Assembly: GCA_947591175.1 (NCBI GenBank)
Contig: CANQDB010000092.1
Span: 1-5,098 of the forward strand
Source of the DNA: an uncultured Bacilli bacterium
GTDB lineage: Bacteria > Bacillota_I > Bacilli_A > RF39 > UBA660
Direction of reading: 5' to 3'
DNA length: 5,098 bases
Each line of letters begins with the position of its first letter. Position 1 is the first letter of the stretch. The notes under the pieces are model-generated. The model worked only from the letters and a program-made list of their open reading frames with translations. It did not search any database and had not been told where the DNA came from. Positions 2,919 to 5,098 of this stretch are shown here, one piece after another. Both the position numbers and the translations under genes were made by a program.

Positions 2919-3131
2919 AATTCCTAACACAAAGTCTTTAGTTTTAGAAAAAATTGGATGCATTTTTTTGTAGGTAAAGACGTTTTTGTAAAAAGACGAG
3001 CAATGGGAAGTTATAATAAAATAATAGTACAACAAAGATTAAAACAAGTAAGAATAGGGTGAAGAATTGATGGTGATAATTATTTAATAATTTTAAGATG
3101 TCATCAAGAAAGTGAGCATTGGGTTGAAATA

Positions 3132-3170
3132 GAAAAAATAGTAATTGATTATTTAAGTCAATAACTACTA
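3132..3170. terminator. Bidirectional intrinsic-terminator-like hairpin between the RT gene and the convergent short plus-strand frame
   Basis: Plus-strand TAGTAATTGA (3139-3148) pairs with TCAAT..TACTA within 3158-3170, giving a 10-bp stem with a 3-nt bulge and a 9-nt loop. On the minus strand it is followed by TTTTTT (plus-strand A run 3133-3138), and on the plus strand by TTTT (3171-3174). It lies about 50 nt downstream of the RT stop. The stem is AT-rich. Confidence 0.35.
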
Positions 3171-3217
3171 TTTTATCCTCCCAAATTTTTTACAATCATG
3201 AAAACAAACCACCTGCA

Positions 3218-4315
3218 TCATGTTATTTTATCCTTACCATACGATAGTTTACAAGACCTAAAAGAATAATTAGGATAATTACCTAGAAAAGTAAATGTCG
3301 AAAATAACTTTCTCTGTAAACAGTAACTATCCGCATGTGAACTATGTCCCAAAAAAGAATTCCAACAAATCAAAACTTGATGAATATCAGAATTCTCTGA
3401 TTCACTCAGACTATTCCAAATTTTAATCTTTTTCTTAATCTTAATAACACTTCTTTTCCTTATTAAACGATGAGTTTCAAAAACTCTATAGCCACAAAAA
3501 TCAATTCCCCTTTTACTGGGGAAATAACAACTTTTAGGGTTTAACTTAAGTTTTAATTCCCAGCATAAAAAGTGTTGTATAGCACTAAATATCCTTTTAG
3601 CTTCTTCTTTAGAAGAAACTAAAAGAACAAAATCATCCATATAACGTAAATAATATTTTATATGTAATTCATGCTTAACAAAGTAATCCAATTTACTTAA
3701 ATATATATTAGCAAAATATTGTGAAGTATAATTTCCGATAGGAATACCTACTTTACCAGCACTATTTTCAAAAATCAATTGATGTGTAAAAGCAAGAAGA
3801 TCCTTATCCTTGATAAACTTTTTTAAAATATCATACAATATATCTAAATCAATCGAATAAAAGAAATGATGAATATCACACTTAATAACATAATATGCAC
3901 CATACTTTCTATTCATAATACGCATATATTTTTGCAAGTTAGTTGATGCTAAATGAATACCCCTATTATCAAGACAAGCATAAGTATCCTTAATAAATCG
4001 TGGCACAATATAAGGTTTAATAAATTCTCCAATATACCACTGTAAAACAATGCGATCTTTATAAGGAAGAGCCAATATCTCTCTTCTCTTTGGTTCATAA
4101 ATTGTAAAATGATAATAAGGGGTTAAATGATAAGTACCATTTTTTATACGCTGAACAAGACTCATTAAATTAGTTTCTAAGTCCAACTCAAAAGTAAGTA
4201 TTTCTTTTGTTAAAGTTTTATGTTTACAAGTTCTCAAATAAGCTTCATAAAAACAAGAGTAATTAAGTTTATCACTTAATTTTACCTTTAGGCTTTTTGG
4301 CACGAAGCAATCCAT
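3218..4315 (-). CDS. DGR-type reverse transcriptase
   Basis: Recognisable RT motifs: IYEPKRREILALPYKDRIV, YACLDNRGIHLA, YVIKCDIHHFFYSID, GIPIGNYTSQYFANIYL (IGNYTSQ at 3719-3739, the DGR-diagnostic [I/L/V]GxxxSQ), YLRYMDDFVLL (YMDD at 3632-3643), LKLNPKS, IDFCGYRVF, and the C-terminal WNSFLGHSSHADSYCLQRKL typical of DGR RTs. There is no maturase/X or endonuclease domain. Start could be ATG at 4315 or GTG at 4303. Confidence 0.93.
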   Translation of the reverse strand: MDCFVPKSLKVKLSDKLNYSCFYEAYLRTCKHKTLTKEILTFELDLETNLMSLVQRIKNGTYHLTPYYHFTIYEPKRREILALPYKDRIVLQWYIGEFIKPYIVPRFIKDTYACLDNRGIHLASTNLQKYMRIMNRKYGAYYVIKCDIHHFFYSIDLDILYDILKKFIKDKDLLAFTHQLIFENSAGKVGIPIGNYTSQYFANIYLSKLDYFVKHELHIKYYLRYMDDFVLLVSSKEEAKRIFSAIQHFLCWELKLKLNPKSCYFPSKRGIDFCGYRVFETHRLIRKRSVIKIKKKIKIWNSLSESENSDIHQVLICWNSFLGHSSHADSYCLQRKLFSTFTFLGNYPNYSFRSCKLSYGKDKIT

Positions 4316-4719
4316 CCTCCTAACAAATTACCAAGATTATAAAGCTTTTTACACCAAGCACTATAATTTTTATTACTAATATACTTTTTTCGATAAGAAA
4401 TACGAGCTAAAGCTTTAATAAATTTTAATTGCACATCCAATTCAAATAAATAATGCAATTTATCTTTTTTTTCATAAAAACGATAAGCAAACAGTATATC
4501 TTTTAAGCCATCGTAAATAGCCTCACGAACATCAGCACTAAGACCATAACGTTCACTTTTAGGATATTTAAGTAATAAAGTAGTTGTATAAATGATCATT
4601 TCTATATATTGCCTATAGATAAGTAGTCCTTCTACCCCTTCATTTTTCTTGAGCACTTCTAAAATATCTTCTTCGCCTTTCTTGATGTCTACTAACGTAA
4701 CTTTATCATTATTACTCAT
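4288..4719 (-). CDS. avd: Avd (accessory variability determinant), four-helix-bundle protein of the 23S rRNA-intervening-sequence protein family
   Basis: YPKSERYGLSADVREA (YPKSERY at 4546-4566) matches the FPKxE+xxLxxQ+RRA-type signature. C-terminal NLGNLLGGWI (GGW at 4312-4320) matches the conserved Avd C-terminus. Size (143 aa), helical heptad-like composition and position directly upstream of a DGR RT all fit. Strong RBS AAGGAGAGG 7-8 nt upstream of the ATG at 4719. Confidence 0.85.
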   Translation of the reverse strand: MSNNDKVTLVDIKKGEEDILEVLKKNEGVEGLLIYRQYIEMIIYTTTLLLKYPKSERYGLSADVREAIYDGLKDILFAYRFYEKKDKLHYLFELDVQLKFIKALARISYRKKYISNKNYSAWCKKLYNLGNLLGGWIASCQKA

Positions 4720-5098
4720 GATTACACCTCTCCTTTAATTCAACTAATATTTGAAAAGCATCCATTGGACTTATTTTATAAATATCTAGTTGTGATAAAT
4801 ATTTTTGAACATCATCGGAAGAATCACAATTAGTGGATTTCAAATGATGTTCTTGATTAATAATCTTATAATTGATTTTTTTATTATTTAATATCTCTTG
4901 ATATTTTGAAAGTGCATTTTTAGGAAATCCACACTTCATAATATCTTTGGTAAAAGATAATTCTTTCAAAGAGAGAATAGAGGACATAATGTGAGAATCT
5001 TCATCGAGAAACAAGTAAAAAGCCCCACATTCAAATAGATAATAACAATCTTTATTTTCTTTTTTTAAATCCAAATACTTTTCGTATATATAACTCAT
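4712..5098 (-). CDS. Mini MutS-like protein (MutS mismatch-binding domain I plus a MutS C-terminal-like helix), a DGR accessory gene
   Basis: YEKYLDLKKENKDCYYLFECGAFYLFLDEDSHIMSSILSLKEL...KCGFPKNALSKYQEILNNKKINYKIINQ aligns by eye to E. coli MutS residues ~13-95 ([42 protein letters not shown]...[28 protein letters not shown]). The C-terminus LDIYKISPMDAFQILVELKE resembles the L-(T/S)P-x-(E/Q)A-x-x-x-L-x-x-LK segment near the end of bacterial MutS. The ATG falls exactly at the window edge, so upstream signals are not visible. Confidence 0.7.
   Translation of the reverse strand: MSYIYEKYLDLKKENKDCYYLFECGAFYLFLDEDSHIMSSILSLKELSFTKDIMKCGFPKNALSKYQEILNNKKINYKIINQEHHLKSTNCDSSDDVQKYLSQLDIYKISPMDAFQILVELKERCNHE

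Follow-up and report, generated by a model that had tools for sequence, protein, structure and literature searches.

The question raised by this locus was whether a MutS-like gene, an avd gene and a reverse transcriptase (RT) gene, lying together without a TR, VR or target gene in view, form a system of their own, the remnant of one, or a part of one whose remainder lies beyond the sequence at hand. The DNA analyzed (5,098 nt, hereafter the window) comes from an uncultured gut lineage of Bacilli with very AT-rich DNA (~25% GC) and carries three intact overlapping open reading frames (ORFs) on its minus strand. Taken together, the results indicated that the window is very probably the protein-coding half of a chromosomal MSL-type DGR, with the TR, the spacer and the target just outside it.

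The RT gene (3218..4315, minus strand) encodes a protein of 365 aa when read from the ATG at 4315. The product matched Pfam RVT_1 (E 9.8e-18) and contained the motifs GIPIGNYTSQ and YMDD. Its best PDB relative over residues 20-333 was 8ub7_A (E 1.6e-46), a 328-aa RT chain which we take to be the Bordetella phage bRT. Group II intron RTs reached only 3e-13 in the same comparison, and 8ub7_A was a better match than any other RT class by about 33 orders of magnitude. IGNYTSQ is an instance of the DGR signature [I/V/L]GxxxSQ, and the alignment with 8ub7_A shows conservation at the positions of bRT Arg74 and Ile181 (PMC7826257). Homologues at 63-66% identity to this RT adjoin verified TR/VR pairs. 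A group II intron RT/maturase, for which a QGxxxSP motif, a maturase (GIIM) domain and a flanking ribozyme were considered, was rejected: TIGR04416 scored 100.6 bits against a cutoff of 300, no GIIM match was found in the window, and the Rfam scan of the window returned no group II intron RNA.

The avd gene (accessory variability determinant; 4288..4719, minus strand) encodes a protein of 143 aa that scored 60.5 bits with Pfam bAvd, above the cutoff of 40, and 72.9 bits with NCBIfam DivGenRetAVD, slightly below the cutoff of 80. Judged by their sequences, the RT is assigned to the DGR class and the 143-aa protein is its Avd accessory, as the preliminary description had proposed from an IGNYTSQ RT lying next to an Avd homologue. 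The overlaps it reported between the three intact ORFs were also confirmed, with 8 nt shared by msl and avd and 28 nt by avd and the RT gene; the latter shrinks to 16 nt if the RT starts at the in-frame GTG at 4303, as called in the relatives L001 and L003 and in sibling L018. Overlaps of 8 nt and 28 nt, identical to those of the window, were found in relative L002.

The third gene, msl (4712..5098, minus strand), encodes a stand-alone MutS-domain-I-like DGR accessory of 128 aa (Pfam MutS_I, E 5.8e-11); in sibling contigs, too, msl is called from this start codon, which is preceded at 9 nt by GGAGG. In the AF2 model of MSL (pLDDT 81), the ~84 N-terminal residues superposed on domain I of MutS/MSH3 with an rmsd of 1.6-1.9 Å and a Foldseek probability of 1.00. 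As in MutS/MSH domain I, the DNA-intercalating Phe of the Phe-X-Glu motif is kept (GAFYL); unlike in MutS/MSH, the Glu is replaced by Leu and the connector, lever, clamp and ATPase domains are absent. TIGR01070 (mutS1) gave 35 bits against a cutoff of 642. Because MSL consists of domain I alone and its Glu is replaced, it is not a repair MutS. The stand-alone MSL family comprised 248 clusters at 50% identity (E <= 1e-10), and a hydrophobic residue stands in place of the Glu in 137 of 141 family representatives, as in the window. Fusions of MSL with Avd were also observed, of 237 aa (L010/P0331) and 227 aa (P0308).

MSL has been described before as an accessory gene of DGRs (PMC5758913; bioRxiv 10.1101/2024.11.15.621889). 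Architecture D of Wu et al. 2018 (PMC5758913) consists of MSL-containing DGRs, in which the MutS-like accessory has 112-283 aa and no HRDC domain, and Msl-encoding DGRs have been described in Bacteroides as Bfr, Bth and Bun (bioRxiv 10.1101/2024.11.15.621889). Like architecture D, the window encodes a 128-aa MutS-domain-I protein, an Avd and a DGR-type RT, all three on the same strand, and no HRDC domain was found in any of its ORFs. The likeness rests on gene content, and the placement of the TR upstream of the accessory genes and of the target upstream of the TR is that of the window's relatives. Unlike the published MSL DGRs, the window belongs to an uncultured gut Bacilli host of ~25% GC and its genes overlap by 8 nt and 28 nt. 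The layout, which had been regarded as a departure from the canonical one in need of explanation, corresponds in its gene content to a published DGR architecture, and the locus is one more member of the MSL-type DGRs already on record.

No imperfect repeat pair with adenine-biased mismatches was found within the window, and the non-coding DNA downstream of the RT gene (2920-3217, 27% GC) holds no AAY-rich template, in line with the earlier statement that neither TR nor VR is in view. The TR of a near-identical sibling had no VR-like copy in the window either. A TR downstream of the RT gene, as in the avd-RT-TR architecture B2, was rejected, since 2920-3217 has no repeat partner and its GC content is unlike the ~50% of the relatives' TRs. 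That the window lacks a TR is very probably an effect of its edge, which falls at the msl start codon, the last three bases of the window being exactly the MSL ATG. The window RT (P0129) is recorded, as an exact match, on an NCBI contig of 5465 nt, of which the window covers 5098 nt, so 367 nt lie outside it at either or both ends. In the exact-product look-up, MSL was the only product found, with no record for the window RT, the window Avd or the 88% RT P0001. No relatives of the RT protein turned up in IMG/VR, so there is no hint of a phage origin, and the whole window gave no megablast match to the plasmids of PLSDB or the phages of INPHARED.

The DNA upstream of position 5098 was recovered from other contigs. 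L012, from the same strain, is identical to window positions 5098-4395 (704/704) and runs 198 nt further upstream into a conserved spacer, within which the contig ends, leaving a 5'-truncated copy. Sibling contig L017 (98.8% identical) continues for 329 nt upstream, across the spacer and on into a TR rich in AAC (…NFNNNGSANDNNSFRLVLAP). The first ~100 nt of this extension are the AAC/AAT-rich TR (GGNYDNTSNVGVFNFNNNGSANDNNSFRLVLAP), alignable to the TRs of the relatives, and the conserved spacer comes next. The 3' part of the TR thus lies directly upstream of msl in L017, and the TR itself was seen only in this 98.8% sibling. Time and again, contigs of the window's lineage stop within or close to the TR; assembly breakage by a second VR copy of almost the same sequence would produce this pattern.

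The spacer of L017 folds with z = -3.4, and the fold places a hairpin with a T-run between the spacer and msl; its loop exceeds 8 nt, and it was therefore missed by the consensus terminator scan. In relative L002 the spacer between TR and msl, outside the window, matched the full model of Rfam RT-14 (RF02921) with 53.6 bits (gathering score 48.1), and weak matches below the gathering score were obtained for L011 (37.2 bits) and for L012 (34.8 bits), where the spacer is 5'-truncated. A 24-nt spacer pattern common to the siblings and L001 had no matches in JGI metagenome contigs or IMG/VR. A structured RNA segment 3' of the TR recruits Avd-RT (PMC6182149). RT-14 was reported without a specific function by Weinberg et al. 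2017, who only speculated that other RT motifs act in DGRs (PMC5737381).

The closest relatives with genomic context (L002, L003 and L010; 63-66% RT identity) are rabbit-gut Bacilli MAGs, in which the order is target gene with VR, TR, structured spacer RNA, MSL, avd and RT. In L002 these are the VR at 8527-8652, the TR at 8793-8918, msl at 9212-9652, avd at 9645-10028 and the RT gene at 10001-11080; in L003, msl is lost and avd is shortened. Mismatches between TR and VR fall at TR adenines in 15 of 15 cases in L002, 16 of 16 in L010 and 21 of 24 in L003. The target lies immediately upstream of the TR in all three, VR and TR being ~140 nt apart. A distance of 3-6 nt separates the end of the VR from the stop codon of the targets, proteins of 654-912 aa with an N-terminal hydrophobic segment, and the L002 target had a weak FGE-sulfatase match (22.6 bits, cutoff 23.3). 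The relatives' elements are chromosomal and flanked by rpsP, ftsH and mscL. These verified pairs, together with the same-strain and sibling contigs, support the option raised in the preliminary description that TR and target lie upstream of position 5098. A search for the VR of the window's lineage was carried out with a profile built from the C-terminal domains of the three relatives' targets and yielded 2014 homologues; none of the 120 listed among them shows the VR pattern to be expected from the TR of the sibling. The target gene and VR of the window's strain were not recovered, and no contig joins either to the window.

The comparison with the BPP-1 DGR (mtd-VR, avd, TR, spacer, brt) is similar in its core: the window RT is homologous over its full length and carries IGxxxSQ, an Avd homologue is present, and in the window's relatives the differences between TR and VR are adenine-specific and the TR is followed at once by a structured non-coding segment. 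Unlike in BPP-1, the TR and spacer stand ahead of msl-avd-RT and not between avd and RT, an additional MSL gene is present, and the relatives' elements are chromosomal and not phage-borne; the spacer matches RT-14 (above the gathering score in L002), in contrast to the RT-10 motif assigned to BPP-1 (PMC5737381).

On the other side of the RT gene the sequence is rearranged. The preliminary description had held that every neighboring gene is damaged, and had taken the intact core among them as a sign of function. Damage was evident in the integrase ORF (1748-2164), a C-terminal fragment covering Pfam profile positions 92-170 of 172; the AlbA_2 ORF (2194-2919), whose only domain is a full-length AlbA_2, is only probably truncated, and the reading frame of the ISL3 transposase (1691 to <1) runs uninterrupted through the 563 codons visible in the window. 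The ISL3 insertion is specific to the window's strain. In four sibling contigs, a tyrosine-recombinase mobile element lies inside the RT gene, inserted at the point corresponding to window position 3735/3736, and splits the RT at the IGNYTSQ codon, which shows that the lineage tolerates loss of the DGR. With the ISL3 transposase not visibly damaged and sibling copies carrying the RT insertion, the step from intactness to function is weak. The integrase fragment was not accepted as kin of the recombinases disrupting the sibling RTs, as the common part is the catalytic-motif region only. Genetic code 4 (TGA = Trp) as the cause of the apparent damage was also rejected because it is TAG/TAA stops that terminate or precede the ORFs of AlbA_2 and the integrase; TGA serves as a stop in the RT gene only, and the Trp codons in view are TGG. 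An AT-rich hairpin with a U-run, detected as a palindrome and then folded (3128..3178, minus strand), lies 40 nt past the RT stop codon and could, with low confidence, be the operon terminator. Sibling L019 has kept this hairpin (repeat I5); the z-score of the whole region is only -0.95, and the consensus terminator scan skips it as it has fewer than 3 G-C pairs.

An orphan or decaying DGR, in which msl-avd-RT and perhaps the TR survive while the target and VR were lost or separated by rearrangements and diversification has ceased, would fit this flank with its integrase fragment, AlbA_2 ORF without further domains and strain-specific ISL3, as well as the split sibling RTs, the eroded L003 and the lack of a lineage VR among the 120 listed of the 2014 target homologues. 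We nevertheless consider it unlikely. All three ORFs are intact, and the residues for catalysis and for adenine mutagenesis are conserved. The rearranged DNA is found beyond the RT gene, at the end opposite to that at which every relative has its TR and target; both the same-strain spacer upstream and the sibling TR are intact, and the repeated contig ends in or near the TR would be accounted for by a second VR copy. Still less probable is a functional DGR that has no adjacent target and diversifies one or several distant genes solely in trans: DGRs whose targets lie elsewhere have been described (PMC5758913) and no target is visible for the window's strain, but the target directly precedes the TR in each of the three closest relatives. 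A TR-less Avd-RT system of another role, such as a defense RT or a retron-like element that merely resembles a DGR, can practically be dismissed, since beside the lack of TR or VR in the window it has only weak NCBIfam matches far below the cutoffs (Drt3a, 66 against 200; Retron St85, 48.9 against 235; Drt2, 45.5 against 390; Drt4, 35 against 450), the best solved relative of the RT is 8ub7_A, and siblings carry TR and spacer directly upstream.

For the MSL-type DGR favored here, the full element would read target gene with C-terminal VR, TR, structured spacer RNA, hairpin with T-run, msl, avd and RT, and we infer that the window copy has an intact VR and target and is active. By analogy with the Bordetella phage system (PMC6182149, PMC7826257), the TR-spacer RNA would be transcribed, Avd-RT would bind and prime on the spacer and copy the TR into cDNA with misincorporation opposite template adenines, and the cDNA would replace the VR at the 3' end of a gene for a surface protein with a lectin-like C-terminal domain. 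The most likely place of action of MSL would be the Avd-RT complex and its substrate the cDNA:VR heteroduplex with its many mismatches, which MSL might, for instance, protect from the host's MutS. One tentative form of this hypothesis is that MSL is a mismatch-binding decoy on the Avd-RT machine, which binds the heteroduplex, blocks host MutS and raises the yield of diversification; on that reading, the Glu lost across the family might, just as tentatively, be the residue that licenses repair. The decoy role is hinted at by the independent MSL-Avd fusions, by the family-wide pattern of Phe kept and Glu lost, and by the 5-10-fold gain in retrohoming on deletion of host mutS in Bacteroides (bioRxiv 10.1101/2024.11.15.621889).

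By itself the locus is of little weight, adding one MSL-type DGR from uncultured gut Bacilli and an example of how a window edge can make a TR seem to be missing. Natural alleles with intact and with insertion-disrupted RT exist in this lineage and are comparable for VR diversity. The large MSL family, with Phe kept, Glu replaced and occasional fusion to Avd, provides a testable hypothesis for a DGR accessory factor, and the position of RT-14 in this clade between the TR and the accessory genes, which is that of a DGR spacer, would give an orphan motif a concrete functional assignment.

The window holds the core of a MutS-like (MSL)-type diversity-generating retroelement (DGR), an already described kind, and its lack of a template repeat (TR) and a variable repeat (VR) is explained by where the window ends. 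The DNA is very rich in AT (20–31% GC), and every gene in view is carried by the minus strand. The msl gene (5098–4712) encodes 128 aa matching Pfam MutS_I (E 5.8e-11). The avd gene (4719–4288), for the accessory variability determinant, encodes 143 aa scoring 60.5 bits with Pfam bAvd (cutoff 40) and 72.9 with NCBIfam DivGenRetAVD (cutoff 80). The reverse transcriptase (RT) gene (4315–3218) encodes 365 aa with an RVT_1 domain and the motifs GIPIGNYTSQ and YMDD. The preliminary description was right that these three ORFs are intact and that they overlap, msl and avd by exactly 8 nt and avd and RT by exactly 28 nt given the ATG at 4315, or 16 nt given the in-frame GTG at 4303.

The IGNYTSQ of the window RT matches the DGR signature [I/V/L]GxxxSQ. 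The closest solved structure was 8ub7_A, a 328-aa reverse transcriptase chain which we take to be the Bordetella phage bRT (E 1.6e-46, residues 20–333), followed by group II intron RTs (E 3e-13). The RT fell far under every cutoff of the NCBIfam group II, retron and DRT RT models. Alignment to 8ub7_A showed that the positions aligned with bRT Arg74 and Ile181 are conserved, two residues demonstrated to promote adenine mutagenesis (PMC7826257). The signature motif, the match to 8ub7_A and the bAvd score above cutoff support a DGR-type RT beside an Avd homologue.

The layout had been taken as non-canonical; MSL, avd and RT together are the published 'Architecture D' (PMC5758913), and no anomaly is left. 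MSL ('MutS-like', 112–283 aa) was defined there as a DGR accessory gene and found in 16 of 372 DGRs, each time with avd (Wu et al. 2018), and three Bacteroides DGRs also encode Msl (bioRxiv 10.1101/2024.11.15.621889). An RT scan over one genome per GTDB species gave ten loci, the nearest being from uncultured Bacilli MAGs of rabbit gut. A repeat search for adenine-biased mismatches, together with ORF maps, showed that three of these loci agree on one architecture. In L002 (66% RT identity), the VR (8527–8652) ends the target ORF (6653–8656), the TR lies at 8793–8918 with 15/15 mismatches at TR adenines, and msl (9212–9652), avd (9645–10028) and RT (10001–11080) follow with the same 8-nt and 28-nt overlaps as in the window. 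In L010 (65%), the VR (8565–8670) and TR (8833–8938) differ at 16 sites, all TR adenines, and an MSL-Avd fusion in a single ORF (9315–10028) precedes the RT. In L003 (63%), 21 of the 24 mismatches between VR (8935–9076) and TR (9193–9334) are at TR adenines and three are not; the region 9335–9984 lacks an msl ORF, avd is shortened and the RT is present, so that this locus could be either a copy in decay or a variant that lacks msl. These maps put the clade's TR on the upstream side of msl rather than between avd and RT. The loci are flanked by housekeeping genes (rpsP, ftsH, mscL and others), indicating that the relatives' DGRs are chromosomal. The TR and VR segments form islands of about 50% GC (L002 8793–8918, L010 8833–8938, L003 9193–9334 and positions 1–100 of the sibling contig L017) in genomes of roughly 25–30% GC.

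A 5465-nt NCBI contig is on record as encoding proteins identical to the window RT (P0129) and MSL (P0121), so 367 nt of the source lie outside the window. Exact-protein look-ups with MSL led to short contigs from ENA and Logan, including contigs that extend past the msl ATG. The same-strain contig L012 is identical to window 5098–4395 (704/704) and continues for 198 nt beyond the ATG on its upstream side, L011 for 239 nt, and the 98.8% identical sibling L017 for 329 nt. Aligned with the relatives, this upstream DNA is a conserved spacer, …CCTAGACTATGGTATA…TTATCATCGAAGATAAATTCCTTTT…TAGTTAGTAAG…GAATATTAGG…, with a GCAGTG/CACTGC hairpin, a T-run and a GGAGG ribosome-binding site at its 3' end. 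L017 opens with the 3' part of a TR, ~100 nt long, AAC/AAT-rich, ~49% GC and reading GGNYDNTSNVGVFNFNNNGSANDNNSFRLVLAP. Of the options first offered, a TR upstream of 5098 is thus supported, by the spacer in L012 and the TR in L017. An orphan core or a TR-less system is unlikely, given a spacer and a TR directly upstream of msl in the siblings.

The L002 spacer (8951–9081) matches Rfam RT-14 (RF02921) at 53.6 bits (gathering score 48.1), and L011 15–179 and L012 1–134 gave weak matches of 37.2 and 34.8 bits. The fold of the L017 spacer beats all 200 shuffles (z = −3.4). RT-14 was published without a specific function (Weinberg et al.); judged by sequence, it takes the spacer's place between TR and msl in the DGR clade of the window. 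In the relative L014 (77% MSL identity), the stretch 1–1540 holds a group II intron (RT and GIIM ORF 166–1455, domain V-like sequence ~1457–1490), which ends ~20 nt short of the msl ribosome-binding site, where the siblings' hairpin and T-run end. This position is expected of a terminator-targeting (IIC-type) intron and lends indirect support to a terminator-like hairpin.

By homology to the Bordetella system (PMC6182149, PMC7826257), Avd-RT would bind the TR-spacer RNA, which would prime cDNA synthesis; template adenines would be copied wrongly, and the cDNA would replace the VR of a surface protein whose C-terminal domain is lectin/FGE-like. The L002 target has a weak FGE-sulfatase match. 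A search for the target and VR of the window strain gave no match in JGI metagenomes, IMG/VR, plasmids and phages, and a profile of the relatives' target domains gave 2014 homologues, with none of the 120 listed fitting the VR that the sibling TR predicts. Several contigs of the lineage terminate in or near the TR, and we infer that a near-identical VR copy may have disrupted their assembly.

Downstream of the intact core, the flank is rearranged. After 298 nt of non-coding DNA come an AlbA_2/Schlafen-domain ORF (2919–2194, minus strand; AlbA_2 complete, no other domain), a tyrosine recombinase C-terminal fragment (2164–1748, minus; Pfam profile positions 92–170 of 172) and a partial ISL3 insertion sequence (1792–1, minus), whose end GGCTCTTCCGCAAG… starts at 1792. 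The claim that every neighbour is damaged fails for the ISL3 transposase, whose ORF is open for 563 codons from the GTG at 1691 to the window edge, without visible damage; it carries Zn_ribbon_ISL3 and a DDE_Tnp_ISL3 domain interrupted by a Lys-rich insert. The insertion truncates the integrase-fragment ORF at its 3' end. The junction of AlbA_2 ORF and integrase fragment (1748–2919, ~30 nt apart, AlbA_2 upstream) is shared by the sibling L020, and is therefore older than the ISL3 insertion; L020, whose homology to the window ends at 1793, lacks ISL3, indicating an ISL3 insertion particular to the strain of the window. Four sibling contigs (95.6–98.9% identical), each from a different sample, have an RT gene split exactly at window 3736/3735, within the Gly codon of IGNYTSQ, by a mobile element (L015 1487–1572, L016 1415–1461, L019 1–2369, L020 1–80). 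Its terminal inverted repeats match perfectly for 86 nt or more, one end bears a 32-nt palindrome, and it encodes two or more tyrosine recombinases (328 and 405 aa) in overlapping ORFs; the element is possibly 'recombinase in trio'-like. The window carries the uninterrupted allele (empty site 3735/3736).

The window MSL, modelled with AF2 (pLDDT 81), has ~84 residues that superpose on domain I of MutS/MSH3 (rmsd 1.6–1.9 Å). The stand-alone family is large, with 248 clusters at 50% identity (E <= 1e-10) and a median length of ~132 aa; at E <= 1e-3 there are 1209 such clusters, among which genuine MutS proteins may be counted. Five MSL-like stretches (best 1440–1524) occur in P0294, a protein of 2323 aa. 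Of the 150 best representatives of the family (P0250–P0399), 141 have the G-x-F-Y-x motif, with Phe invariant, and 137 of these have I, L or V at the position of MutS Glu38 (Phe-X-Glu motif). MSL-Avd fusions occur in at least two representatives (P0331 of L010, 237 aa, ORF 9315–10028; P0308, 227 aa), implying that the two proteins act together. Deletion of host mutS raises Bacteroides DGR retrohoming 5- to 10-fold (bioRxiv 10.1101/2024.11.15.621889). The fusions, the kept Phe with the lost Glu and this deletion effect suggest a speculative role, rather improbable as it stands, in which MSL would be a mismatch-binding subunit, unable to signal repair, that protects the heteroduplex. The remaining interest of the element lies in what MSL does and in identifying Rfam RT-14 as a probable DGR spacer RNA.
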